From a virus (lineage: Duplodnaviria > Heunggongvirae > Uroviricota > Caudoviricetes): DNA of 47,118 nucleotides. The position numbers and the translations under genes are program-made. The stretch lies in the IMG/VR virus record IMGVR_UViG_2634166512_000003; one strand, written 5' to 3'. Within the stretch, counting starts at the first letter, position 1, and each line of letters begins with the position of its first letter. Below the pieces are notes generated by a model that did not search any database, was not told the origin of the DNA, and saw only the letters and a list, made by a program, of their open reading frames with translations. Below, piece by piece: positions 3,272 to 38,294 of this stretch.

Positions 3272-5490
3272 GCTGTTTGCTCCTGTGCGGCGGCGAGAGC
3301 GGCGAGGCGTTCGGTTTTGATTTCATTCAAACGGCGCAGGCGCGAACCAAGATAAGTTGAATACTCCTTATCACCTTTGGATTCTGCGGCTTTGCGGTGA
3401 ACTTCTACTTCCCGCGCAATAAGGCCATAGACTTTATTAACTTCATTGGGGGTTACGGCTGCAGCCAGTGTTTTGGCAACACCTGAGAGTCGTTCATCCA
3501 GTTCTTCACGCAGTCGGGTAGCATCCTCTGCTTTCTCGCTTGCCTTCTTAATACCGTATTCTGTATTCAGCTCGGCGGTGTAGGCACTATCGTTATGCAT
3601 ATCCATATAAACATCTGCCGCAAATCCCAGATGAGATAGTGCTTTGACGGTGGCATCAGTAAGAGACTTTTTGGAGGCCTCTTTTTCCATTACCAGTGCC
3701 CCTTTGTTATTTTTTGATATGTAATCCGTGTGGCCATATGACGGAATAAATCCTTTCACTCCGTTCCAGACGTACCAGAGATCTATCCGGATGGTGTGTA
3801 CTGACAGGCAGAACAGGGAGCCGTCAGCATCCCTGACAGGTTTTTGTCCAATAATTTTCCCTGTCTGATCCTGTATAGGTTCAAGTAATGGCACACCGCG
3901 ATCCACTCGCTCCTCCTTGATTTCAACTCCCCAACCAATGCCTTCCATTCCCAGCACTTCAGTCGCACGCATCAAAATATATTGTGCGCGTATGGAGTGC
4001 AGTCCTGCACCGTAATCATTATGTGTGACATACGCAGGATCGGTCCGCTGAACGCGATTCCAGATAGCCAAATTTGCTTTGCTCTGGTCATCATTCATTG
4101 CTGACAGATAATGCTCCATGCGAATTGATGCAGTTTTTTCCTCGGTATGGATCCGCTCAACCAGAGCGTCAACGTTCTGCACCAGGTCTTTTACCTGCTC
4201 GCTAAGTTTTTCTTGTGGAGGAGTCTCTTCTTCCAGGATAACAGTTACAGATTCCCGCTGTGATACGGCGTTATTTTCTGGTACGCCATACACATGGCGG
4301 GGCGTGACAAACTGCTCACGCAACTGCTGCAAACTACGCTCTCCAGCATTTGCTGCTTCGCTTTTTTCGCCCTGATTTGAGGGGGGTTCTGACATCATCC
4401 CATCGATTGAGAATCGCCCGCCGCCGTGGTTGGTGACTTTTACATCACCCTTTGGTGCTGCGTCCTTTGGCTTCTCTTCAACAGCATTTGCATCACGCTG
4501 CCCGTTAGCTTGCAGCCAGTTGTCGATGTGACTGCGCAGGGATTGCGGGAAATGGTACGTGTCTTTTGCGGGGGCACTCTGAACGACACCGAATACGGAT
4601 GCCCGGTCATAGGAAAGGATCTGATCCGTTGTGCGCAAGGCCATTGACCAGCGTTTAAAATCCTCCCGATCCTGGCTGATTATTTCGTCTGCCGCTTTCA
4701 GGACGCTGGGGGTGATTTTTTCCGGGCCAACGGGTAACAGAGCGCAGGCAATTTCACGATCCAGTGTAGCGTGAGTCTGTTTGTAAGGACGTGCGGATGC
4801 TGTTTCTGGTTTTACCTCCGGCAGCATTTCATCGCGTTTACCGGGATTCTCTACCCATTTTTTTATAAATTTGGAGATAGTCCAACTGGTCGGGTTTTGT
4901 TCCTGGGTATCGCAACTTGCCAAAATTGCATGTACCAGATTATTCAATCCAGCAATATGCATGTACTCGATGGGCTTACACGCCACCATGGCATCAAGAA
5001 CGATGCGGTTAAACGCGTCAACCTCATCCTCACTGTCAGTATCACTGTTGTCGAGCATCTCCAGGTATTCACGCGTCTGCGCAAGCAATTCACTGTTGAC
5101 TTCGTTGGCGTCGTGGCTGAACAGCAGAACGGCGGCGAATCGTTCACGAGCCGGCAGTTTCATCAGGTCGTTAACCTGTGCGATATCTGCTGAACCGCTA
5201 TCTACAACGGGGGTGTTAACTACCCATTTTTCGCCATCAAAACTGTGTTCTGTGGCGAACGTCTCATCAAACTCACCAACGCCTGGGCGCGGTTGGCCCG
5301 GGGCATCTTCCCAGATTTTAGGTTTGAAATAGTTGTCGCCGTGGTCAGGGTAGGCTTCCCACAATTTGCCGATGATGATGTTCTCGGCAACTTTTTTGTT
5401 AGGGGCGTCGATGGCGATGGCCAGCGCCGGGATCGCGCCGTTTTTGAGCGCGCCTTTTTTCGCTTCTAACAAGCCGTTAAAAATGGTCAT
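3268..5490 (-). CDS. large phage recombination protein: C-terminal Rad52/Sak/ERF-like single-strand annealing domain with about 400-aa N-terminal extension of unknown function
   Basis: 740-aa ORF with GAGGAAAGACC RBS; C-terminal half contains KKSLTDATVKALSHLGFAADVY, resembling the K-x-x-TDA-x-K-x-A-...-G-x-G-...-Y signature of Rad52-like annealing proteins; N-terminal half not recognised. Confidence 0.5.
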   Translation of the reverse strand: MTIFNGLLEAKKGALKNGAIPALAIAIDAPNKKVAENIIIGKLWEAYPDHGDNYFKPKIWEDAPGQPRPGVGEFDETFATEHSFDGEKWVVNTPVVDSGSADIAQVNDLMKLPARERFAAVLLFSHDANEVNSELLAQTREYLEMLDNSDTDSEDEVDAFNRIVLDAMVACKPIEYMHIAGLNNLVHAILASCDTQEQNPTSWTISKFIKKWVENPGKRDEMLPEVKPETASARPYKQTHATLDREIACALLPVGPEKITPSVLKAADEIISQDREDFKRWSMALRTTDQILSYDRASVFGVVQSAPAKDTYHFPQSLRSHIDNWLQANGQRDANAVEEKPKDAAPKGDVKVTNHGGGRFSIDGMMSEPPSNQGEKSEAANAGERSLQQLREQFVTPRHVYGVPENNAVSQRESVTVILEEETPPQEKLSEQVKDLVQNVDALVERIHTEEKTASIRMEHYLSAMNDDQSKANLAIWNRVQRTDPAYVTHNDYGAGLHSIRAQYILMRATEVLGMEGIGWGVEIKEERVDRGVPLLEPIQDQTGKIIGQKPVRDADGSLFCLSVHTIRIDLWYVWNGVKGFIPSYGHTDYISKNNKGALVMEKEASKKSLTDATVKALSHLGFAADVYMDMHNDSAYTAELNTEYGIKKASEKAEDATRLREELDERLSGVAKTLAAAVTPNEVNKVYGLIAREVEVHRKAAESKGDKEYSTYLGSRLRRLNEIKTERLAALAAAQEQTA

Positions 5491-9446: not shown

Positions 9447-9645
9447 ATCCAGAAGAACTGGAAGCGATCGTTCTCGCTGGTCTGATTAACGGTGGCGCGA
9501 CGCCTGACGCGTTTGATGTGATTGCCACTACTCCGGAGGAAGCCTTCAGCATCGTGTTTCGTAAGCGTAAACTGACCGCCGTATGTAGCCATCAGACGAG
9601 AATTGGTAACTTAGACGCCCATCTGATATAGACGGACATCTAAGT

Positions 9646-10071
9646 ATGGAATTACAGGACTGGCGAAAAGAACCTCGTAAAAACTATTCGAATGAATTCA
9701 AACTTCGTATGGTGGAACTGGCATCACAACCTGGAGCTTGTGTTGCACAGATTGCACGTGAAAATGGCGTCAATGATAATGTTATTTTCAAATGGCTCAG
9801 GCTCTGGCAGAACGAAGGGCGTGTTTCGCGGCGTCTTCCGGTAACGACCTCTTCTGACACTGGCGTTGAATTATTACCTGTAGAAATAACGCCGGATGAG
9901 CAGAAAGAACCTGTGGCGGCCATTGCGCCGTCTTTATCCACTTCCACTCAGACCAGAGTCAGTGCCAGTTCCTGCAAGGTGGAATTCCGTCACGGTAACA
10001 TGACGCTGGAAAATCCATCGCCAGAGCTGCTCACAGTGTTGATCCGTGAACTGACCGGGAGGGGAAGATGA
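9646..10071 (+). CDS. IS66 family accessory protein Orf1 (TnpA-like)
   Basis: 141-aa HTH-containing protein, first of the IS66 three-gene set. Confidence 0.8.
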   Translation: MELQDWRKEPRKNYSNEFKLRMVELASQPGACVAQIARENGVNDNVIFKWLRLWQNEGRVSRRLPVTTSSDTGVELLPVEITPDEQKEPVAAIAPSLSTSTQTRVSASSCKVEFRHGNMTLENPSPELLTVLIRELTGRGR

Positions 10072-10418
10072 TCTCACTCCCATCAGGTACCCGTATCTGG
10101 CTCGTTGCCGGCGTTACCGATATGCGTAAATCCTTCAACGGACTGGGAGAACAGGTACAACATGTGCTGAATGATAATCCCTTCTCCGGTCACCTGTTTA
10201 TCTTCCGTGGCCGACGGGGTGACACCGTCAAAATTCTTTGGGCTGATGCTGATGGTCTGTGCCTGTTCACCAAACGCCTGGAGGAAGGCCAGTTTATCTG
10301 GCCTGCGGTACGTGACGGCAAGGTATCCATTACCCGCTCGCAACTGGCAATGCTCCTCGATAAGCTGGACTGGCGTCAGCCAAAAACATCCAGCCGTAAC
10401 TCACTGACAATGTTGTAA
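10068..10418 (+). CDS. IS66 family accessory protein Orf2 (TnpB-like)
   Basis: 116-aa protein overlapping Orf1 stop (ATGA), characteristic IS66 arrangement. Confidence 0.8.
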   Translation: MISLPSGTRIWLVAGVTDMRKSFNGLGEQVQHVLNDNPFSGHLFIFRGRRGDTVKILWADADGLCLFTKRLEEGQFIWPAVRDGKVSITRSQLAMLLDKLDWRQPKTSSRNSLTML

Positions 10419-10448
10419 AAAACTCCTGACCGCATTATAAAAACGGTC

Positions 10449-12062
10449 ATGAGTCAGAAATACCTCATTCGCATCGCAGAGCTGGAAAGGTTGCTCTCTG
10501 AGCAGGCTGAAGCCCTCCGTCAGAAAGACCAGCAACTGAGTCTGGTTGAAGAGACGGAAGCCTTCCTGCGCTCTGCACTGACACGTGCCGAAGAAAAGAT
10601 CGAAGAAGATGAACGGGAAATAGAACATCTGCGGGCTCAGATAGAAAAACTGCGCCGGATGCTGTTCGGTACCCGTTCTGAAAAACTGCGTCGTGAAGTT
10701 GAACTGGCTGAGGCTCTGCTGAAACAACGTGAACAGGACAGCGATCGTTACAGTGGGCGGGAAGACGATCCTCAGGTTCCCCGCCAGTTGCGACAGTCGC
10801 GCCATCGTCGTCCGTTACCGGCACACCTTCCCCGTGAAATACACCGCCTGGAGCCAGAAGAAAGCTGTTGCCCGGAGTGTGGCGGTGAGCTGGATTATCT
10901 GGGGGAAGTCAGCGCTGAACAGCTGGAACTGGTGAGCAGTGCCCTGAAAGTGATCCGCACAGAACGGGTAAAAAAAGCCTGTACAAAATGTGACTGTATT
11001 GTTGAAGCACCGGCGCCGTCCCGCCCGATAGAGCGTGGTATCGCGGGCCCCGGATTACTTGCCCGCGTGTTAACGGGAAAATACTGCGAACATCTGCCAC
11101 TGTATCGTCAGAGTGAAATCTTTGCCCGCCAGGGTGTCGAACTGACCTGGGCCTTACTCTCCAACTGGGTTGACGCGTGCTGCCAGTTAATGACACCGGT
11201 GAATGATGCCCTGTACCGTTATGTAATGAACACCCGCAAGGTTCACACTGATGACACACCGGTAAAGGTACTGGCACCGGGTCAGAAAAAGGCGAAAACA
11301 GGGCGTATCTGGACGTATGTCCGGGATGATCGCAATGTGGGTTCGTCATCTCCTCCAGCGGTCTGGTTCGCGTACTCGCCGAACCGGCAGGGGAAACACC
11401 CGGAGCAACACCTCCGCCCCTTCCGGGGTATCCTGCAGGCGGATGCGTTCACAGGTTACGACAGGTTGTTCAGTGCAGAACGTGAAGGTGGTACACTGAC
11501 AGAAGTTGCGTGCTGGGCCCATGCCCGGCGAAAAATCCACGATGTATACATCAGCAGCAAAAGTGCGACGGCAGAAGAAGCCCTGAAGCGAATCAGTGAA
11601 CTGTACGCCATCGAGGATGAAATACGGGGATTACCGGAGTCAGAGCGTCTTGCCGTCAGGCAGCAGCGAAGCAAAGTGTTACTGACGTCGCTGCATGAAT
11701 GGATGGTGGAGAAGAATGGTACGCTGTCGAAAAAATCCAGACTGGGCGAAGCGTTCAGCTATGTACTGAATCAGTGGGATGCCCTCTGTTATTACAGTGA
11801 TGACGGTCTGGCGGAGGCGGATAATAATGCTGCGGAAAGAGCGCTTCGTGCAGTCTGTCTCGGAAAGAAAAACTTTATGTTCTTTGGCAGCGATCACGGC
11901 GGCGAGCGTGGAGCACTGTTGTACGGGCTGATCGGCACCTGCCGTCTGAACGGTATCGATCCGGAAGCGTATCTGCGCCATATCCTGAGCGTACTGCCGG
12001 AATGGCCTTCCAACCGAGTTGACGAACTCCTGCCATGGAACGTAGTACTCACCAATAAATAA
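10449..12062 (+). CDS. IS66 family transposase
   Basis: 537-aa protein with N-terminal coiled-coil/leucine zipper, CxxC zinc motif and DDE-type core as recalled for IS66 transposases. Confidence 0.85.
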   Translation: MSQKYLIRIAELERLLSEQAEALRQKDQQLSLVEETEAFLRSALTRAEEKIEEDEREIEHLRAQIEKLRRMLFGTRSEKLRREVELAEALLKQREQDSDRYSGREDDPQVPRQLRQSRHRRPLPAHLPREIHRLEPEESCCPECGGELDYLGEVSAEQLELVSSALKVIRTERVKKACTKCDCIVEAPAPSRPIERGIAGPGLLARVLTGKYCEHLPLYRQSEIFARQGVELTWALLSNWVDACCQLMTPVNDALYRYVMNTRKVHTDDTPVKVLAPGQKKAKTGRIWTYVRDDRNVGSSSPPAVWFAYSPNRQGKHPEQHLRPFRGILQADAFTGYDRLFSAEREGGTLTEVACWAHARRKIHDVYISSKSATAEEALKRISELYAIEDEIRGLPESERLAVRQQRSKVLLTSLHEWMVEKNGTLSKKSRLGEAFSYVLNQWDALCYYSDDGLAEADNNAAERALRAVCLGKKNFMFFGSDHGGERGALLYGLIGTCRLNGIDPEAYLRHILSVLPEWPSNRVDELLPWNVVLTNK

Positions 12063-13412
12063 GCGTCAATACGGTGCTCCGTTGACGCTTACCGTGTTTC
12101 ACCGTCGCGCTTTCAGCGAAATCAAAAAGCAGGCACTGGCGAACGGCATGATCGACATGTTGTTTATCAGCGAAGCGCTGGGCGGTTCCAGCCTTGCGGA
12201 TCTGTCTCAAATATCCCGGATCCCGGCAACGGCACCGAATCTGAAAGGCTATGCCGGGAAAATGGTGCGGGCATGGCGGAGCCGCAAAATGGCGGCATTG
12301 TTGCAATCTGGCGCGGATGGTATCCGTAACGCTGTAAACCAGAGTCAGCGTGATGAGGTTATTGAATCTCATGTTGCTCAGGTGCTGGATATGAGCGCCG
12401 CTACCGGCACAGTCCAGCCGGTACACATCAAAGAGCTGTTACCGCTCTACATTGACACCGTTGATAAACGGATGTCTGGTGACGCGCAGGAAATGATGCT
12501 GAAAACCGGAGTCGAGGATCTGGATGTCGCCCTGGGCGGTATCAACATGACCGATCTTGTTGTGGTTGCCGGTCGTCCAGGCATGGGGAAAACGGAATTT
12601 ACCCTGAAGATTATCGATGGCGTTACCGCAGATGGCGGCGGCGCACTGTTTTTCAGCATGGAAATGGGCGCTCAGCAGATTGTTGAACGTACCGTTGCCG
12701 GGGCTGGGAATATGTCAACGTCGCGTCTGCGTAATCCAAAAGAAATGGACGATGAGGATTTGACCAGATTAACCGCCGCGCTTGCAATCATGCAGGATCG
12801 CGATATCTGGATTGTTGATGCCACTGATTTGACGATTGAGCAGATCCGCGCCATTGCAGAGACTCATAAACGCCGTTATCCGCACCTGAAGTTGATTGGT
12901 GTTGATTACATGGGCCTGATCAAAAAACCGAAGGCCGAGCGCCACGATCTCGCTGTCGGGCATATCTCCCGCAACATGAAGACTATGGCCATGCGTCTGC
13001 ATACCCCTGTTTTTGCTCTTAGCCAGCTTTCCCGCCAGGTGGATTCTCGACCTGCTGGCCAGCGTCGCCCGGTGATGTCGGACCTGCGCGATTCCGGCAG
13101 TGTTGAGCAGGACGCTGACAGCATTTTGTTTTTGTACCGCGATGAAGTTTACACACCTGATTCACCTGCAAAGGGTATCGCCGAGGTGATTATCGGTAAA
13201 AACCGTTCTGGCGGGGCAGGTGAAATTATTTATCAGGAATTCCGGAATGGGCATTTCCTGCCAATTGATCAACACGTAGCACGCGAAAAAATACGCATCC
13301 AGAAGGAGGCAGAGCAACCGAGAAAACGTGAAAAACGGTATTCAAACAAAAACTTTAATACGGACCCATTTTAACCACGCATGACCAGCGTGAAATAACC
13401 GAGGAAAGACCA

Positions 13413-14949: not shown

Positions 14950-15744
14950 ATGACAACTCAAGTATCCGCAGCAGCCATCTCCCCGATTATCCACAACCAA
15001 CTTCCCGTCCTCACCACCGAATTACTCGCGAATCTCTATGGCACAGAGCCGGATTACATTCGTAAAAACCATAACCGGAACTCAGAGCGATTCGTGGTCG
15101 GGAAGCATTACTTTTTGCTCGAAGGTGAGGAGTTGCGCGAATTTAAGCACAGCATGTCTTTAAGACCTCCTGTGAAAATCGCCAGAAATGTCCGCTCTCT
15201 CATCCTCTGGACAGAACGCGGCGCAGCTCGCCATGCCAAAATGCTGGAAACAGAACAGGCCTGGGAAGTTTTCGAAAAGCTGGAAGATTGTTATTTTAGC
15301 CAGCGTCCAGAGAGGCGGAGTACAACCACCGATGACCGCACTCCCTTACGTGATGCCGTTAATATGCTGGTCGGTAAGAAAGGCATGATGTATCCCGATG
15401 CCTACACCATGATTCACCAACGTTTCGCCGTCTCTCACATAGAACAACTGTCACAGACGCAAATGTTAGAGGCGATTGAATACATCCACTGCCTGCTACT
15501 CGATGAAAATCAGCCAACCATTCCAGATTTTTCTTTTATCACCACTATCAAAAATGGAAAAGTGACCAGGATGCGCCATGTTGCCAAAGGCGAACATCTG
15601 ATGACGTTTGACGCTTTCAAAGAGATCGCTGAGCGGGCAGGGTATCTGGTGATCCACAGCGACAACCTGCGAAGTATGACGCTGGATAAATTGATGGTAA
15701 TGGGGAAAAAGTCGGTTGTATCCGTTGCTGATTCAGCATTTTGA
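14950..15744 (+). CDS. antirepressor / Roi-like protein with N-terminal KilA-N/ORF6N-type domain
   Basis: N-terminal region (LPVLTTELLANLYGTEPDYIRKNHNRNSERFVVGKHYFL) resembles ORF6N/KilA-N antirepressor domains as recalled. Confidence 0.55.
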   Translation: MTTQVSAAAISPIIHNQLPVLTTELLANLYGTEPDYIRKNHNRNSERFVVGKHYFLLEGEELREFKHSMSLRPPVKIARNVRSLILWTERGAARHAKMLETEQAWEVFEKLEDCYFSQRPERRSTTTDDRTPLRDAVNMLVGKKGMMYPDAYTMIHQRFAVSHIEQLSQTQMLEAIEYIHCLLLDENQPTIPDFSFITTIKNGKVTRMRHVAKGEHLMTFDAFKEIAERAGYLVIHSDNLRSMTLDKLMVMGKKSVVSVADSAF

Positions 15745-15852: not shown

Positions 15853-15921
15853 TTACGTATGTACTTGATGACTAAGCTGGCACCAGGTTAACACCAGGCG
15901 CCAGCTTGAAGGAAACTTCAG

Positions 15922-16845
15922 TTATTGGTTTCTGAGGAAAGCGATTCTTGAAAGGGTCATTTGCGTCTGGCAGTCGACCATTTTCTTGACTTCAGCATCT
16001 GTTCCCTGCATTGAAACTTTACCGCACATAGCATCCTTAGTTTTGATCCACTGACGCTGAGAAGGCAGCAACTCTTTTTTCTTCGCCGGCGTTAACCTGC
16101 CCCAGACTGTATTCAAATCAGAGTCAGCATTCGCAAATGCCATTCGGGACTGATCAAGGCTTTCAGCTTTTTGCGGCTGAAGTTGTGCCTGCCTCTCTAT
16201 TTGCTTCTCCGCCTCATACCTGGCCTGTTCCTGTGCCCTGAGTTGCACCTGTTGTTCCGCTTCAATTTGACTCTGTTGGGCATCCTTAGCCTGCTGGATT
16301 TTCTGCTGCTCAACGATCGGGTTGATAATGGAAAGCGATGTCAGTAAAGCGGCGCCCACTGATATCGGATTATCAGAAGAGGTTTTTACAAAAACGTTTT
16401 TCTGATCGTCGGTCGCCTGCACGGTGTAGGTGATACGTTTTGAAAAGGCGTTTGCGTTGTTCTCCAAAAACAGATTTTCCATTTGCTTATCGAGATTACG
16501 ATTAAAATTCTTTCGGTAAGCATCAGAAAGCTGGATGTACTCGTTCGCAGGTAGAGTCATCGTCACGGTCCCTTCACAAGTTTTCATTGTGCTGCCCGTG
16601 TCACTTGATGTTGTGGAGATTTCAGAGACGGCTAGTTTGATCTTGTCCAGTGTGCTTCGTTTGGTCTGATTAGTGACATCAGGGTATTTATCGACCTGTT
16701 CAGAGAGTCCTTCATAAGCAGATTTTTTTAATAAATCCATGAGAGCTGATTGGGTCATTTCCGAAGAACAACCGATCTCATCTTTTTTGTTATCACAGCC
16801 TGTAAGGGCAATGGCGAGTAAGAGTACTGAGTATTTTAATCTCAT
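15922..16845 (-). CDS. lipoprotein with Gln-rich coiled-coil region and C-terminal DUF1311/LprI-like domain
   Basis: Signal peptide with lipobox LTGC; C-terminal QRQWIKTKDAMC...CQTQM motif resembling DUF1311 as recalled; minus-strand orientation opposite to flanking phage genes. Confidence 0.55.
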   Translation of the reverse strand: MRLKYSVLLLAIALTGCDNKKDEIGCSSEMTQSALMDLLKKSAYEGLSEQVDKYPDVTNQTKRSTLDKIKLAVSEISTTSSDTGSTMKTCEGTVTMTLPANEYIQLSDAYRKNFNRNLDKQMENLFLENNANAFSKRITYTVQATDDQKNVFVKTSSDNPISVGAALLTSLSIINPIVEQQKIQQAKDAQQSQIEAEQQVQLRAQEQARYEAEKQIERQAQLQPQKAESLDQSRMAFANADSDLNTVWGRLTPAKKKELLPSQRQWIKTKDAMCGKVSMQGTDAEVKKMVDCQTQMTLSRIAFLRNQ

Positions 16846-17471
16846 GAATTCCCTTTAGAGTAAGGATTGGTTTTTAAGACGCGGTCTGTAATCAGTTCCG
16901 AGAGCTACAGTAAACAACGCTGAGCACTGAACGCATCACAGGCAAGGTAAAAGGTGATATCGGCAAAGGCTGTGAAACCTTTAATTCAACAGATGGGAAC
17001 GGTATGCACAGGATCCTGTAACGACGCTCCCAAAACCGGAAACCTGTAAGGCATGTTTTCGCTGCTGAACTTAATATACGAACCTGCACTATCATGAACA
17101 TATTTTATATCGTTATACCCCGAGTGATTGTGCCCGGCAATGGATAGTGTCCTGGAGGAACTATTTCTACTGTAAAAGGTAGACATTTAATTTCAGTGTG
17201 GAATTATTCCCTGCTGTTAATAACCATGGCTCTATATGGCACCGAGCGGACTAGTTAACTTGCCTGAAAGCCGCTATGAGTGAGGAGCGAATATTGGCAC
17301 GATAGGATACCTGAACCATTTTTTGGACATGCGCTAAAAGCGAATGATTAGTTTTATCGGAATATTTACAGTATACTTACAAGGCAAGCTTGGCGTACCG
17401 TCTTGGGCGAGATTGCTTAAATTATTTTGTGGATATATCATTCAAACAAAAGATAATAAAATGAGGTTGTT

Positions 17472-17669
17472 ATGTCATATATTCGCGTAGAGAAAGATGG
17501 CCTTCAGTATGAAGCAGAATACTTCCGTGAAGAGGATATGGTCACAGTCTTTGGGGTTAGAGGAGGGCATTCCAGCGTGGTTCTAAATGGAATGACAGAA
17601 GTCGCGGCTGCTCGTACTGCGTTACGAAATCTTATTAGAGAAAATCAGGTTGATCCTCTAACTGATTAA
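17472..17669 (+). CDS. hypothetical small protein (65 aa)
   Basis: ORF in AT-rich island upstream of the T5orf172-like gene. Confidence 0.35.
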   Translation: MSYIRVEKDGLQYEAEYFREEDMVTVFGVRGGHSSVVLNGMTEVAAARTALRNLIRENQVDPLTD

Positions 17670-17873
17670 AAATAAGCCATCTTAACTGAGAGCATATTTT
17701 GATATAATTTAGATTAAATCTATTTTGAAGGTTAGTTTGGGATGAGAAGATTACATCAAAACCGTTATTACTAGCAATAAGTTGTGTAAATCAAATAATA
17801 CATAATCAGGTGGTAATATATACTAAGCGTAGTAAAGTTTTTATATATTCCTGTAACTTTGTGAGAAACTTCC

Positions 17874-18539
17874 ATGAAAGCCGACAACTTAAGAATTATA
17901 GAGAATGGCAAATATGTTTTCGATATGTTCTTGGATACTGGTGAATTTTACTATACAAGTCATGCCTTTGACACGAGAGAAGATGCAAAAAGCTGGATGG
18001 AAGAATGGCAGATTTGGGCAAATAATGTATCGAGTGGGAAAGTAAGTAGTATTTATTATATTTTACAAGTGCCTGATACTTGGGCCGGTTCTTCAGATAA
18101 AAATAACCCTTACTCGGGACTTTATGTGAAAATAGGGCGTTCCAATAATGTGCTAAAAAGGTTGTCTAACCTGCAGACAGGTGCATTTGGTCAATTAATA
18201 TTACACGCTTTGGAACCAGGTGGTTCAGAAAAAGAAAACTATCTTCATGAAAAATTTAGCAACGAAAGACGTCAAGGTGAATGGTTTGTTTGTACTAAGG
18301 AACTTACCAAGCATATATTTACAACATGGTTTAAAAACAAAATGCTCCCACCAGAACATCAAATAAAAATAATGCAGCTCGCAGAAAGAACAGGTATTTA
18401 TTCGCATGTTCATACACTAATGGGGGGGAAGCCAGACTTAGTAAACCCATCTATTAGTGAACCTTGGGAATGCGAAAAATATGTTTTGGTTGATATGATT
18501 TATAGCTCTTTAGCAAAGCAAGTTAATCATAAAAAATAA
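17874..18539 (+). CDS. T5orf172/MUG113-type (GIY-YIG superfamily) domain protein with uncharacterised N-terminal domain
   Basis: Motif GLYVKIGRSNNVLKRLSNLQTG...LHEKFSNERRQGEWF matches the recalled T5orf172 consensus (YVKIG...R...L..TG...LH..F...R..GEWF); AT-rich codon usage. Confidence 0.7.
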   Translation: MKADNLRIIENGKYVFDMFLDTGEFYYTSHAFDTREDAKSWMEEWQIWANNVSSGKVSSIYYILQVPDTWAGSSDKNNPYSGLYVKIGRSNNVLKRLSNLQTGAFGQLILHALEPGGSEKENYLHEKFSNERRQGEWFVCTKELTKHIFTTWFKNKMLPPEHQIKIMQLAERTGIYSHVHTLMGGKPDLVNPSISEPWECEKYVLVDMIYSSLAKQVNHKK

Positions 18540-18664
18540 AGTGTTACATTTTAACTATACAATTATTGATTCACTAATGAAGAGGTGATTTAGACGTATG
18601 AAGTTTTAATAAGCTCCAAGAATATTTTGTCATACATGGGTTAAAGAGTTATATAATAATATCT

Positions 18665-18722
18665 GCTTCTGGAACACAGCAGACAAGCACCTGCAGATAA
18701 AGGTCTGCTGAGAGCGAGAAGC
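18665..18722 (+). other. nested inverted-repeat element (possible structured RNA) in intergenic gap
   Basis: GCTTCT...AGAAGC outer stem enclosing CAGCAGAC...GTCTGCTG inner 8-bp stem with 18-nt loop. Confidence 0.3.
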
Positions 18723-18859
18723 GGATCATACGTTGGAAGTTGTTTAGGCAAATACGTTATAAACGTATTTGATTAAATTTACTTGGATCATAGTCTTCAA
18801 TAACGCTTTATTATATTGTTTTTCATGCAGCAAACAGGTTCACAGGTAGGTAATAAGCT

Positions 18860-19264
18860 ATGAGTGGATGGAAAGAGCCTTTTACATTAGCAGAACAGAT
18901 ACAATTAGCATTAAATTTAGGTTATGAGGCTGTACCAGATGAAGAGGCATATACTGGGGCATACTTCATTAAAGGTGGTAAGAAGTGGATCTTTAACATC
19001 ATCGGTCTCAAAAAGACATTGAATATATCTTCAGATGATGAACTAAGAGGGCAGGATTATGATGTTGATATGTATTTCGAAATTCGCCAAAATTGGGCAC
19101 AATACCAAGATATGATCTTTGGAAGCGAAGATATCACTCCTTCACCTAAAAATGAACTTACTTCAATTTACCATGACCTGCAGGTAACGGATGAACCCAG
19201 GGAAATGGTGTATCTTTCTGATGGGATGTGGCTGGCTCCCAACGGACGAATTGTACAACGATAG
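18860..19264 (+). CDS. hypothetical protein (134 aa), possible partner of T5orf172-like protein
   Basis: Co-oriented ORF downstream in the same AT-rich island. Confidence 0.45.
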   Translation: MSGWKEPFTLAEQIQLALNLGYEAVPDEEAYTGAYFIKGGKKWIFNIIGLKKTLNISSDDELRGQDYDVDMYFEIRQNWAQYQDMIFGSEDITPSPKNELTSIYHDLQVTDEPREMVYLSDGMWLAPNGRIVQR

Positions 19265-19373
19265 CACTCGAACACACTCAGTAATCGTCTATAAGGCCAG
19301 CACTTGTTACTTGGTCATTTGGGGTTGCTGGTCTTCTCCATTAAATCGACTAAAGTCTGTTCCATAGAGAGAG

Positions 19374-19979
19374 TTACTTGCGTTTAAAAAGGTATTTTGT
19401 CACGACCAGCACGAGGCCGAATACCTCTGTCAAAGTACCGCCCATGTACAACTGTAGTGTTAAATCCTCAAATTCCAGCTTACCTGCGCCGTCGGCAATA
19501 AATACACCATTCATTATCAGAAGTTGGCAAGCAAGGATAATCAGGAACCATTTCCCGTATCGTTTTTTTAGAGCGATTTCTGCTTCAAAATCTTTGTTGT
19601 TGAGTTGTTTGCGCTCATGCTCGGTATCAAGTGAATTCACCTGTTTCACAGATGTGAACTCGGTCAAGATTTTACTCTCAGTACGGGTGACTTGTTGAGA
19701 GGGTGTAACAGTTGGAATTCTTTTGCTAGACGCAGCTACAGCCATTTTGCGAGCTTCGGCAGCTCTTTTTCTGGCTATTCCGCGAATACGGACAGCCGTT
19801 TTTTTGGGGGCGTGCGAAACCTTTGGCTGAGGTGAAGTTTCGTCAGGAGACTGAACCGGGGTTTCATCGTCCCCCGGCTCAACCTCTTCTGCTAACTGAC
19901 GGTGTAGGTTGAGGGAATCCTTCAGTCGGCGTGCAACTTCCTGTTTGAAACGGCTGTTAAAATCGTCATCCGATGGCAT
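19374..19979 (-). CDS. Lys/Arg-rich protein with two C-terminal transmembrane helices
   Basis: Hydrophobic segments WFLIILACQLLIMNGVFIA and LTEVFGLVLVVTKYLF near the C-terminus; start 10 nt after ImmA-like stop; 3' end coincides with repeat copy B. Confidence 0.55.
   Translation of the reverse strand: MPSDDDFNSRFKQEVARRLKDSLNLHRQLAEEVEPGDDETPVQSPDETSPQPKVSHAPKKTAVRIRGIARKRAAEARKMAVAASSKRIPTVTPSQQVTRTESKILTEFTSVKQVNSLDTEHERKQLNNKDFEAEIALKKRYGKWFLIILACQLLIMNGVFIADGAGKLEFEDLTLQLYMGGTLTEVFGLVLVVTKYLFKRK
19384..19454. repeat. copy B of about 70-bp direct repeat (coding 3' end of the 19374..19979 gene)
   Basis: Near-identical to 15783..15852. Confidence 0.8.
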
Positions 19980-31354: not shown

Positions 31355-32664
31355 TGCCGTGGAACAATTTTCCGCACCTCGCCGCTAGGGCGTTCAATCA
31401 ACCGCTTTTGCTGGAGCCCGCCTACGCGCGGGTATTTTTTTCTGCGCTGAGCGACCGGTTCGGTACCGGGCGACTGATTGATACAGCGTCAGGAGAGGTA
31501 ATGAACAGCGACGAAATGAACGCGCTCGCGATGGGGTGGGACAGCAGCGAGCGAACACGCCAGAAATCGTATCGCGTGGAGCGTGGTATAGCCGTTCTGC
31601 CGGTTACCGGGACGCTGGTTCATAAATTGGGTTATATCAATCCGGTCAGCGGGATGAGTGGTTACGACGGAATCGCAAAACGCCTGCAGCAGGCGATTTC
31701 TGATCCCGATGTTAAGGGGATCCTGCTGGATATTGATTCCCCTGGCGGTGAGGTCGCCGGCGCGTTTGATACCGCTGATTTAATCGCCCGGGCGCGAGAG
31801 CAAAAACCGGTGTGGGCGCTGGCCAGCGATACGGCCTGCAGCGCCGCATATTTGCTGGCGTCAGCGTGTTCGCGCCGGCTGATAACGCAGACCGGCACGG
31901 TTGGTTCAATCGGTGTCCTGATGGCTCACCGCTGCGTCGAAAAGGCGCTGGAGATTGCCGGCGTTGACGTGACGCTGATTTACGCCGGCGCGCACAAAGT
32001 CGACGGGAACCCGTATTCCCAGCTGCCCGACGACGTTCGCGACGAATTCCAGCTGAGTATTAACAGCACACGCGAGCAGTTCGCGCAAAAAGTCTCGGAT
32101 TATACCGGGCTGAAAAAATCCAGGGTGCTGGCCACAGAGGCCGCAGTATTTATCGGCGCGGACGCGATTAAATCTGGTCTCGCTGATCAACTCGTTAATT
32201 ACGCGGACGCTATCGCAGTGATGGCCGACGCACTGAAACCAAAAACGGAGCGATTTATGCCAGGTACAACAGAAACCACGGCGGAGACCACGACCACAGA
32301 ACAAACCGCGGCTACGACTACGGTCGCGCCGGTTGAGTCCAACGCGGAGCAGATTCGCGCGGACGCCGCATCGAGCGAACTGGCACGCGTGATGGCCATC
32401 ATCAACTGTCCCGAAGCTGTTGGGCGCGAGGCGCAGGCAAAAGCGCTCGCTGCCGTCCCCGGGATGACGGTCGGGCAGGCGCAGGCTGTCCTCGCGGCAG
32501 CACCGCAAACAGCGCAGGCGCGGACAGAAACGGCGCTCGATACACTCATGAGCACTGAATCACCGGAAACTATTCAGGATGCCGGCAGCACCACGGCAAC
32601 AGGAACAACCGCAAACGTCTCGATGCTGGTCGCGGCAGGGCGTTCAATTTTAGGGGATGAATAA
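31354..32664 (+). CDS. prohead protease / scaffold (lambda gpC-like, ClpP/S49-type)
   Basis: GILLDIDSPGGEVAG and SAAYLLASAC motifs typical of S49-family head proteases; Thr/Ala-rich C-terminal scaffold-like region. Confidence 0.8.
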   Translation: MPWNNFPHLAARAFNQPLLLEPAYARVFFSALSDRFGTGRLIDTASGEVMNSDEMNALAMGWDSSERTRQKSYRVERGIAVLPVTGTLVHKLGYINPVSGMSGYDGIAKRLQQAISDPDVKGILLDIDSPGGEVAGAFDTADLIARAREQKPVWALASDTACSAAYLLASACSRRLITQTGTVGSIGVLMAHRCVEKALEIAGVDVTLIYAGAHKVDGNPYSQLPDDVRDEFQLSINSTREQFAQKVSDYTGLKKSRVLATEAAVFIGADAIKSGLADQLVNYADAIAVMADALKPKTERFMPGTTETTAETTTTEQTAATTTVAPVESNAEQIRADAASSELARVMAIINCPEAVGREAQAKALAAVPGMTVGQAQAVLAAAPQTAQARTETALDTLMSTESPETIQDAGSTTATGTTANVSMLVAAGRSILGDE

Positions 32665-37377: not shown

Positions 37378-38294
37378 TAACATCAACAGTTCAGAACTCG
37401 ATAGTGAAAACTATTGATATGAGTCTGCTGCCGCCGCCAGCATTCGTTAAAACCCCGTTATTTTCAGATGTTAAATCTAATCTACTGTCAGAGCTGCAGA
37501 TATTATATCCACAATTTAACGCACTCCTGGAGTCAGACCCGGCAGTTAAACTGCTGGAAATAGTTGCATACAGAGAAATCATTATTACAGCTCGGGTAAA
37601 TCAGGGGATGCTCGCTGTATTGCTCGCGTTTGCAAAAGGGACTGACCTCGACCAGATTGGCGCTAATTTTGACTGCCTGCGGCTGTTGATAACGCCAGCT
37701 AATCCCGACTCAGTCCCCCCGACTGAAGCGGTTTACGAGAGTGACGACGAGTATCGTCATCGCATACAACTATCATGGTACGCGCGTAATACTGCCGGCA
37801 GTACAAACGCGTATAACTATTTCGCGCTATCGAGTGATCCCGATGTTCTGTCAGCGCAGGCATACGGCCCGCCTGTGACTCAGCCAGGGTACGTCGATAT
37901 GTACGTTTTGTCCCGGACAGGCGACGGTGTACCCCCGCAATCACTACTGAATACAGTGAATGCGGCCCTGTCTCCTGACGACACTCGGCCACTAACTGAT
38001 TTCGTGACCGTAAAACCTGCGTCGAACCTGAATTACCGGGTTGAGGCCGTTATCGTAGCGGGGCTCGGTCCCGACCAGAACGTATTACTCAACGGCGCGC
38101 AGAGCGACCTGGCGGTCTACGTGACCACGCAACATAAAATCGGGGCAACAGCAGCCCTGTCGGGAATTTACGACGCAATACATCGTGACGGCACCGAACG
38201 TGTGATTCTGATATCGCCGACAGAGGACGTCATTGCAGGTGTCGGACAGGCACCATATTGCACCGAAATTAAACTCAGCGTACAGATGGGGTGA
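37374..38294 (+). CDS. baseplate protein J-like
   Basis: 306-aa ORF in V-W-J-I order; assignment by synteny and size. Confidence 0.7.
   Translation: MITSTVQNSIVKTIDMSLLPPPAFVKTPLFSDVKSNLLSELQILYPQFNALLESDPAVKLLEIVAYREIIITARVNQGMLAVLLAFAKGTDLDQIGANFDCLRLLITPANPDSVPPTEAVYESDDEYRHRIQLSWYARNTAGSTNAYNYFALSSDPDVLSAQAYGPPVTQPGYVDMYVLSRTGDGVPPQSLLNTVNAALSPDDTRPLTDFVTVKPASNLNYRVEAVIVAGLGPDQNVLLNGAQSDLAVYVTTQHKIGATAALSGIYDAIHRDGTERVILISPTEDVIAGVGQAPYCTEIKLSVQMG

Follow-up and report, generated by a model that had tools for sequence, protein, structure and literature searches.

We analysed a stretch of 47,118 nucleotides (IMG/VR virus record IMGVR_UViG_2634166512_000003; the whole stretch is called the window below), which is a prophage of Escherichia coli, and within it a single gene at 15922..16845 on the minus strand, whose product is entered in RefSeq as 'lysozyme inhibitor LprI family protein' (WP_039264482.1). 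Our findings give good support to the notion that this LprI-like gene is a true moron, which resides on a self-contained cassette of 1.2 kb and is kept under purifying selection. Its product is a putatively lipid-anchored, stalked member of a known, poorly understood family that is already represented in public databases. We envision a lipid-anchored periplasmic protein of about 32 kDa whose C-terminal DUF1311 head binds a lysozyme-fold peptidoglycan glycosidase, and we put the probability of this explanation at about one in two. Beyond the DUF1311 domain itself, no defining feature backs the 'lysozyme inhibitor' label.

The LprI-like gene travels on a mobile cassette

The limits of the cassette emerge from blastn comparisons with other loci. 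Homology extends over 15876-17074 in a Citrobacter chromosome (locus L002), over 15873-17076 in a Yersinia rohdei chromosome (L016) and over 15916-17064 in Enterobacter prophages (L010-L012). Nucleotide identity to these loci is 82-90%, no homology is found past the cassette limits, and chromosomal and prophage copies of the ~1.2-kb unit have common boundaries at about 15873-15916 and 17064-17076. That chromosomes of Citrobacter and Yersinia have the same cassette as prophages of Enterobacter argues strongly for a true moron. A preliminary description of the window had proposed a moron-type gene encoded antisense to the flanking phage genes, and both points are borne out by the shared homology limits, by the plus-strand orientation of both neighbours and by the GC content, which is 0.449 in the gene and 0.487 in the prophage. 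The cassette and its parts are as follows.

15873..17076, minus strand: whole moron cassette, consisting of hairpin, gene and conserved upstream block (blastn against other loci)
15922..16845, minus strand: coding sequence, 307 aa plus stop (open reading frame list; RefSeq WP_039264482.1; PHROG 5094; ratio of non-synonymous to synonymous divergence, dN/dS, 0.12-0.21)
16846..17076, minus strand: conserved non-coding upstream block, which travels with the gene (alignments across four genera)
15875..15906, no strand assigned: GC-rich hairpin (-28.2 kcal/mol, z=-5.4 against shuffles; within the block shared with Citrobacter and Yersinia)

The open reading frame (ORF) of 307 codons plus stop begins with ATG, coincides exactly with the coordinates first proposed for it and is preceded by a Shine-Dalgarno sequence, AAGGG, 6 nt upstream of the start codon (~16851-16855). 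Because dN/dS is 0.12-0.21 against orthologues from three other genera, and because the exact protein is present on 401 contigs of a large protein collection, this is a real gene rather than a chance ORF. Each of three protein segments, taken separately, has a dN/dS of 0.09-0.21, while dS reaches only 0.25-0.50 between genera, a combination that points to recent horizontal spread under purifying selection. The protein belongs to phrog_5094 (PHROGs, E=1e-183), a family annotated as of unknown function, and an NCBIfam search returned nothing meaningful.

Where does the gene occur? Of 5426 complete E. coli genomes, 441 are positive with an internal probe, and in all of these the gene is chromosomal; its homologues form 113 clusters, all from Enterobacterales. 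The Enterobacter copies lie in lambdoid prophages, where they again run antisense, flanked by the O/P replication genes and by DinI/DUF1367/RusA/Q. Chromosomal copies that stand alone, in neighbourhoods unrelated to one another, are found in Citrobacter freundii, Pantoea, Yersinia rohdei, Proteus and Morganella. LprI-like genes are carried by 38 IMG/VR viral contigs, relatives at 46-47% identity included; on one of these (L071) the gene adjoins the large terminase gene and thus occupies a different phage position, and in a related E. coli prophage (L035) its right-hand neighbours are different. Phage GenBank records yielded no DNA match and, at the protein level, only two tiny records with weak matches to the C-terminal domain.

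The concept of phage morons and of lysogenic-conversion lipoproteins stems from lambdoid phage genomics. Like such morons, the LprI-like gene is a lone gene that runs opposite to its neighbours, has non-coding flanks of its own and a hairpin downstream, and turns up in unrelated chromosomes as well as in some of the related prophages. A sigma-70 consensus was sought in its upstream block and not found.

A predicted lipid anchor, an α/β domain, a helical spacer and a DUF1311 head

The protein may be partitioned into four segments, all encoded on the minus strand.

16795..16845, minus strand: signal peptide and lipobox, residues 1-17 (sequence reading; Cys17 invariant in 32 homologues)
16312..16794, minus strand: N-terminal α/β domain, residues 18-178 (invariant Cys26/Cys90; Q-(A/P)-T-D-D motif at 143-147)
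16162..16311, minus strand: Gln/Glu/Ala-rich helical spacer, residues 179-228 (34% Gln; within a predicted helix)
15925..16161, minus strand: C-terminal DUF1311/LprI three-helix domain, residues 229-307 (PF07007, match to 3gi7, BLASTP to the C-domain of ScwA)

The N-terminus, MRLKYSVLLLAIALTG/C17-D18-N19, contains a canonical lipobox (LTG/C17) that can be read directly from the sequence: two basic residues and a 10-residue hydrophobic core lead to L-T-G-C, with Asp18-Asn19 next. Cys17, the predicted site of lipid attachment, is unchanged in 32 of 32 aligned homologues. In the Lol sorting system of E. coli, Asp at position +2 causes retention in the inner membrane, and Asn at +3 strengthens that retention. 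The localisation of the protein in the envelope is thus suggested by its signal sequence.

An AlphaFold model of the whole protein has a predicted local distance difference test (pLDDT) score of 83.9. The N-domain is modelled as helices 29-51, 59-66 and 100-114 with four main strands; it belongs to no Pfam family and has no close solved relative. The spacer lies inside a single continuous helix of 62 residues (160-221), and its length ranges from 41 to 79 residues across the 32 homologues, which fits the role of a spacer. The C-domain is modelled as three helices within 230-305 and matches PF07007 (LprI/DUF1311) over residues 225-304 and profile positions 10-106 of 106 (E=5.4e-8); it scores 33.6 bits, where the gathering cut-off is 22 bits. 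It also resembles 3gi7, a DUF1311 protein of solved structure (Foldseek probability 1.00; template modelling score 0.65 when normalised to 3gi7; 95 columns), with a weak E-value (0.24) that is explained by the use of the whole two-domain model as query. A sequence search of the PDB gave nothing significant, and the BFVD library of viral structures gave no match at E<=0.001. The C-domain is basic (isoelectric point, pI, 9.6), whereas N-domain and spacer are acidic (pI ~5).

Five cysteines are invariant in the alignment of 32 homologues: Cys17, Cys26, Cys90, Cys274 and Cys292. Apart from the lipid-attachment site they form one pair per domain. The reading of the protein as a lipobox protein with a DUF1311/LprI-like C-terminal Cys-pair domain, given in the preliminary description, therefore stands: Cys17 and the pair Cys274/Cys292 are invariant, and the DUF1311 search scores above the Pfam cut-off. 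The Gln-rich coiled coil that was proposed to lie in between is retained as a Gln-rich helix, but not as an established coiled coil, because no regular a/d heptads are visible by eye.

A reusable N-domain and kinship with ScwA

A profile of the N-domain, compared with 1.84 billion representative proteins, retrieves at least 219 clusters, in which the domain is always N-terminal and the host proteins mostly comprise 280-420 aa. Composition was assessed on 122 sampled members. A lipobox is present in 113 of these. The C-terminus is DUF1311-like in 83 members, for 62 of which Pfam gives a match at E<=1e-3; other C-termini are SH3_3 (8), TPR (3), cytochrome c (2), YARHG (2), TonB_C (1) and T2SS-G (1). 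The N-domain behaves as a reusable membrane-proximal module. Its near-invariant positions are Cys26, Thr78, Asp82, Ser85, Cys90 and the Q-P-T-D-D motif at 143-147.

The only studied protein of this two-domain layout is ScwA (SL1344_0490), by which Salmonella Typhimurium regulates its cell wall from the periplasm; it comprises 275 aa with a C-terminal LprI domain and four conserved cysteines at positions 30, 100, 237 and 259 (Cestero et al., 2021, PMC7933661). We reassembled this protein from the DNA of S. Typhimurium 798 (L025), guided by the primers given in that paper. In this strain scwA (L025:1814-2641) is frameshifted in an A-run and annotated as two ORFs, so that the junction KKK/NNS of the rebuilt protein is a reconstructed one. 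Several Salmonella assemblies (L020-L023) break their contigs within scwA.

In BLASTP comparisons with ScwA, the C-domain of the window protein is 35% identical (E=2e-10), and the N-terminal part aligns colinearly at 21% identity (E=0.008). When the profile of the 122-sequence family is used instead, hhalign reports a probability of 98.5% (E=1.6e-15) over 253 columns that span both domains, and Cys26, Cys90, Cys274 and Cys292 fall in register with ScwA Cys30, Cys100, Cys237 and Cys259. The broad-profile match, with all four cysteines aligned, indicates that ScwA belongs to the same two-domain family, as a member that is soluble and has no spacer. Both proteins consist of an N-terminal α/β domain with two cysteines followed by a C-terminal DUF1311 domain with two cysteines, and both are encoded by horizontally acquired stand-alone genes. 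They differ in that ScwA is soluble, with an ordinary signal peptide (MFRKAVTLLFLLSPAVSYA/G, cleaved after SYA) in place of the lipobox and Asp at +2; in that ScwA is almost devoid of a spacer, whereas the window protein has a 50-residue Gln-rich helix; and in that scwA is chromosomal, between copA and ybaP, whereas the gene studied here lies on a prophage. The authors of the ScwA study tentatively proposed the cross-domain disulfides C30-C237 and C100-C259 (PMC7933661). The two-domain model would predict the intradomain pairs C30-C100 and C237-C259 instead.

What might the DUF1311 head bind?

The activities of studied DUF1311 proteins may bear on the protein described here. ScwA, a periplasmic protein with two DsbA-dependent disulfides, increases the amount of MltD and changes the amounts of Slt, AmiC, NlpC, PBP4 and AmpH; its overproduction lyses cells, and its deletion leaves lysozyme sensitivity unchanged, with or without ethylenediaminetetraacetic acid (EDTA) (PMC7933661). 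LprI of Mycobacterium tuberculosis (Rv1541c), the namesake of PF07007, is described as a lysozyme-inhibiting lipoprotein (PMC7933661, PMC12744762). According to the ScwA study, LprI has an MliC domain (PF09864) as well, and the authors credit lysozyme inhibition to MliC (PMC7933661). Going by these accounts, the window protein is like LprI in being a lipoprotein with a PF07007 domain, and unlike it in having an unrelated α/β N-domain and a helical spacer in place of MliC. It gives no match to PF09864 even at E<=10, and no match to Ivy, PliC or PliG in Pfam and NCBIfam. The MliC/PliC, Ivy and PliG inhibitors resemble it in their envelope location, and MliC is also a lipoprotein, but none of their family models matches its sequence, and no lysozyme-inhibitor structure appears among the PDB fold matches listed.

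SDE5, a secreted protein of 'Candidatus Liberibacter asiaticus' with an LprI domain, cuts the activity of hen lysozyme by 86% in vitro, and this inhibition needs Ser68 within an MliC-like FAASGAE motif (PMC12744762). SDE5 and the window protein both contain PF07007, and SDE5 shows that a protein annotated with LprI alone can inhibit hen lysozyme; the FAASGAE motif, however, is absent from the C-domain of the window protein, and SDE5 acts in its plant or insect host rather than in the bacterial periplasm. We considered the sequence ISVGAA (161-166) as an MliC-like motif and rejected it: in the model it is part of a helix, and homologues differ in the residue that precedes Gly (V/S/A/M/N/T).

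A further group of DUF1311 proteins serves as immunity proteins to peptidoglycan-targeting effectors of type VI secretion systems (T6SS), and one of them, Etsi4, rescues the periplasmic toxicity of the effector Etse4 (PMC12981562). Predicted DUF1311 immunity proteins comprise SED_RS06230 of Salmonella Dublin (146 aa), whose partner is a LysM/transglycosylase effector, and Psi15 of Pantoea, whose partner is a pesticin-domain effector; Pantoea also has orphan DUF1311 arrays, and DUF1311 genes with predicted immunity function flank WHIX effectors. The window protein is like these in its periplasmic DUF1311 domain, its horizontal mobility and its orphan occurrence without an effector. T6SS immunity proteins of this type, however, are small where a size is given (146 aa in SED_RS06230), have a Sec signal and are encoded in or near T6SS islands beside their effector, whereas the window protein, at 307 aa, is a lipid-anchored, prophage-borne protein of two domains with no effector neighbour in the contexts read. 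By analogy across these cases, the common thread of the studied DUF1311 proteins appears to be the binding of lysozyme-fold peptidoglycan glycosidases.

We envision a scenario whereby the protein, as its signal sequence suggests, is exported by Sec and lipidated at Cys17, and is then held in the inner membrane by Asp18-Asn19, as the E. coli +2 rule would have it. DsbA may form one disulfide per domain, as the invariant cysteine pairs and the two-disulfide DsbA substrate ScwA suggest. In the model, helix 160-221 would place the basic DUF1311 head about 7-9 nm from the membrane, near the peptidoglycan. There, as in other DUF1311 proteins, the head could bind a lytic transglycosylase or a muramidase and change its activity or stability, and the outcome for the lysogen would be envelope protection or altered cell-wall turnover.

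Several observations weigh against this scenario. With regard to expression in the lysogen, no sequence in the upstream block (16846-17076) reaches 9 of 12 matches to the sigma-70 consensus. With regard to the anchor, the +2 residue varies in the wider N-domain family (Gly 32, Asp 31, Ser 17), so that inner-membrane placement is a property of the subfamily of the window protein at most. The link to ScwA, as judged from sequence, is a remote one at 21-35% identity, and the narrow N-domain profile alone matches ScwA at a probability of 62% (E=7e-5); ScwA is, moreover, soluble and spacer-less, its mechanism is not worked out, and direct binding to MltD has not been demonstrated. No effector or glycosidase gene adjoins the gene, and no effector or T6SS gene is present within 5-8 kb of it, in nine contexts (E. 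coli, Citrobacter, Morganella, Enterobacter, Pantoea, Yersinia, Proteus and two distant members), and guilt by association is therefore of no help in naming a target. Finally, the N-domain is also joined to other C-termini, among them SH3, TPR and cytochrome c, and may therefore carry the main function.

Alternative explanations

Two special cases of glycosidase binding rank about equally, with inhibition of animal lysozyme and exclusion of other phages below them. In the first, the gene would be an orphan immunity gene whose DUF1311 head neutralises lysozyme-like, pesticin-like or transglycosylase toxins delivered by the T6SS of competitors, so that protection is what the prophage gives its host in return. 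The experiment with Etsi4 and the predicted cases in S. Dublin, Pantoea and beside WHIX effectors lend weight to this idea, and the LprI-like gene is stand-alone and horizontally mobile, as orphan immunity genes are; the N-domain, spacer and lipid anchor are nevertheless additions to the small, Sec-exported immunity proteins for which a size or architecture is given, and neither an effector neighbour nor a T6SS island was seen in the nine contexts. On balance we regard this idea as a tentative one that is unlikely to hold as it stands. A broader version of it, in which lipoproteins composed of N-domain, stalk and DUF1311 head are a widespread class of membrane-anchored 'guards' that keep a glycosidase-binding head level with the peptidoglycan, and in which temperate phages of Enterobacterales carry one as a mobile orphan immunity gene against the muramidase toxins of rivals or the tail lysozymes of superinfecting phages, is speculative and seems quite unlikely to us.

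In the second case, the protein would act in the manner of ScwA by binding or stabilising a host lytic transglycosylase such as MltD, and thereby retune cell-wall turnover in the lysogen. The full-length architecture is common to both proteins, and ScwA does alter hydrolase levels and lyses cells upon overproduction. The homologue in Morganella morganii (L006-L009:1-9002) lies directly 3' of genes for an alpha-2-macroglobulin (yfhM-like) and pbpC, a known periplasmic defence and envelope-repair pair; this linkage is seen in Morganella only and is not kept in the other genera. Set against this are the low identity to ScwA, the lipid anchor and long spacer that distinguish the window protein from a soluble relative, and the fact that the mechanism of ScwA is itself not settled. 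We consider this case, too, possible yet improbable in its specifics.

Alternatively, the main activity may reside in the N-domain and be unrelated to peptidoglycan glycosidases, with DUF1311 being one interchangeable C-terminal adaptor. The N-domain is indeed the more widely combined of the two (SH3_3, TPR, cytochrome c, YARHG, TonB_C and T2SS-G), and it has a near-invariant motif of its own (Cys26, Thr78, Asp82, Ser85, Cys90 and Q-P-T-D-D). Even so, 83 of the 122 family members end in a DUF1311-like domain, and purifying selection on the C-domain is at least as strong as on the rest of the protein (dN/dS 0.09-0.21), which makes this alternative rather doubtful.

Is the protein then a genuine inhibitor of animal c-type lysozyme, which would make the lysogen more lysozyme-tolerant in the gut or inside phagocytes? 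The preliminary description had named lysozyme protection, effector protection and superinfection exclusion as possible roles. Its general idea of a moron that modifies the envelope is a reasonable one, but the specific function of a lysozyme inhibitor amounts to a transfer of name, given the missing MliC domain and the missing lysozyme phenotype of the scwA deletion. It can be said in favour of inhibition that the Pfam family is named after LprI of M. tuberculosis, which is described as inhibitory, and that SDE5 acts on hen lysozyme in vitro. An Enterobacter prophage with the same cassette, moreover, encodes a lysozyme inhibitor of the Ivy family (PF08816) near its terminase genes (L010:5178-5591), which is an independent case of phage-borne lysozyme-inhibitor cargo. 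However, the window protein matches neither MliC (PF09864) nor Ivy or PliC, its α/β N-domain lacks a close solved relative and gives no pointer to known inhibitor families, loss of ScwA does not alter lysozyme sensitivity with or without EDTA, and the essential serine motif of SDE5 is missing from the C-domain. We therefore hold true lysozyme inhibition to be improbable.

Another conceivable role is that of a superinfection-exclusion lipoprotein, which would inhibit the tail lysozyme or transglycosylase of incoming virions or mask an envelope component. There is a precedent in phage T4, whose Spackle protein inhibits the tail-associated lysozyme of incoming virions, and the present gene is prophage cargo at the usual place of lysogenic conversion, encodes a lipoprotein as known exclusion factors do, and has a domain with affinity for lysozyme-fold enzymes. 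Yet the protein resembles none of the known exclusion lipoproteins, since the matches to TrbK (E=0.083) and VirB7 (E=0.084) cover the signal peptide only. No PADLOC defence model matches it either, and of the homologues from Citrobacter, Pantoea, Yersinia, Proteus and Morganella most are plain chromosomal genes that lie outside prophages. We deem this role highly improbable. Control of the prophage's own endolysin was likewise considered and rejected as unlikely, because the prophages that carry the cassette differ in their lysis enzyme, which may be a TIGR02594 protein, a GH19 enzyme or a T4-type lysozyme.

Non-coding parts of the cassette, CRISPR targeting and prophage setting

The non-coding upstream block of about 230 nt diverges by 0.15-0.31 between loci, about 0.6 times dS. 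An overlapping ORF of 69 aa is broken by indels, leaving no conserved ORF in the block, and the block matches no Rfam family and displays no covariation. A sigma-E-like GGAACTG...TCTTA was rejected as a promoter, its spacer being about 3 nt too short and the sequence not being kept in other genera. A 5-bp pairing of TCCTT with AAGGG in the block could mask the Shine-Dalgarno sequence. The hairpin at 15875-15906 lies 16 nt past the stop codon, between two convergent genes, and has no U-tract; it is possibly a terminator or an RNA-stabilising element.

The gene is also targeted by clustered regularly interspaced short palindromic repeat (CRISPR) arrays of type I-E in E. coli. Exact 32-nt spacers correspond to protospacers at 16814-16845, 16341-16372 and 16228-16259 within it, and further spacers correspond to four more sites in the prophage (3424-3455, 4800-4831, 32626-32657 and 37846-37877); all seven protospacers are preceded by a functional ATG or AAG protospacer-adjacent motif. 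These arrays, from strains 32-4, 3CM and GCM39-10-2-9-3-1 (L026-L028), were located by way of the gene, so that the numbers carry no claim of enrichment. To judge from cassette counts minus internal-probe counts, about 130-145 E. coli genomes match the cassette by short matches only, and those inspected are CRISPR arrays.

The prophage is integrated beside a serine transfer RNA gene, tRNA-Ser (892-981), next to mtfA, and continues with integrase, cI/cro-like genes, helicase, Q, holins, terminase, and capsid and tail genes. The LprI-like gene lies in its accessory region, with replication genes on one side and the DUF1367/DUF1364/Q late-control genes on the other. Its immediate neighbours, both on the plus strand, are an ORF6N gene (14950-15744) and a 65-aa ORF (17472-17669), the latter followed by a GIY-YIG gene (17874-18539). 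The ORF6N-domain gene has weak matches to the candidate defence-system model PDC-S05 (E ~3e-6). The GIY-YIG nuclease-family gene, together with small ORFs, lies in a low-GC island at 17400-19400 (0.33-0.37, compared with 0.49 for the prophage), and since another gene is found at this spot in the related E. coli prophage (L035), this is a second cargo slot beside the LprI-like cassette.

Apart from one insertion, the window is identical to the prophage of E. coli O43 RM10042. The insertion, absent from that prophage, is an IS66-like insertion sequence of 2532 bp (9561-12092). It ends in 24-nt inverted repeats (GTAAGCG...), is flanked by a duplicated target of 8 bp (CGTGTTTC) and has three ORFs, which encode 141, 116 and 537 aa. 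As it splits the replicative helicase gene of the prophage, the copy in the window is probably replication-defective.

Significance

Taken alone the gene is an ordinary one, annotated in hundreds of genomes and assigned to a named domain family. The value of the analysis lies in a sharper annotation, whereby 'lysozyme inhibitor' is recognised as an unproven transfer of name for proteins without MliC, and in a corrected identity, that of a lipid-anchored, stalked relative of ScwA which moves as a 1.2-kb cassette among chromosomes and prophages in several genera. Should the protective reading prove right, the gene would offer a clean example of a prophage that pays its host with envelope immunity, and it would open a way to the function of DUF1311 and to that of a hitherto undescribed N-terminal lipoprotein domain that is present in at least 219 clusters.

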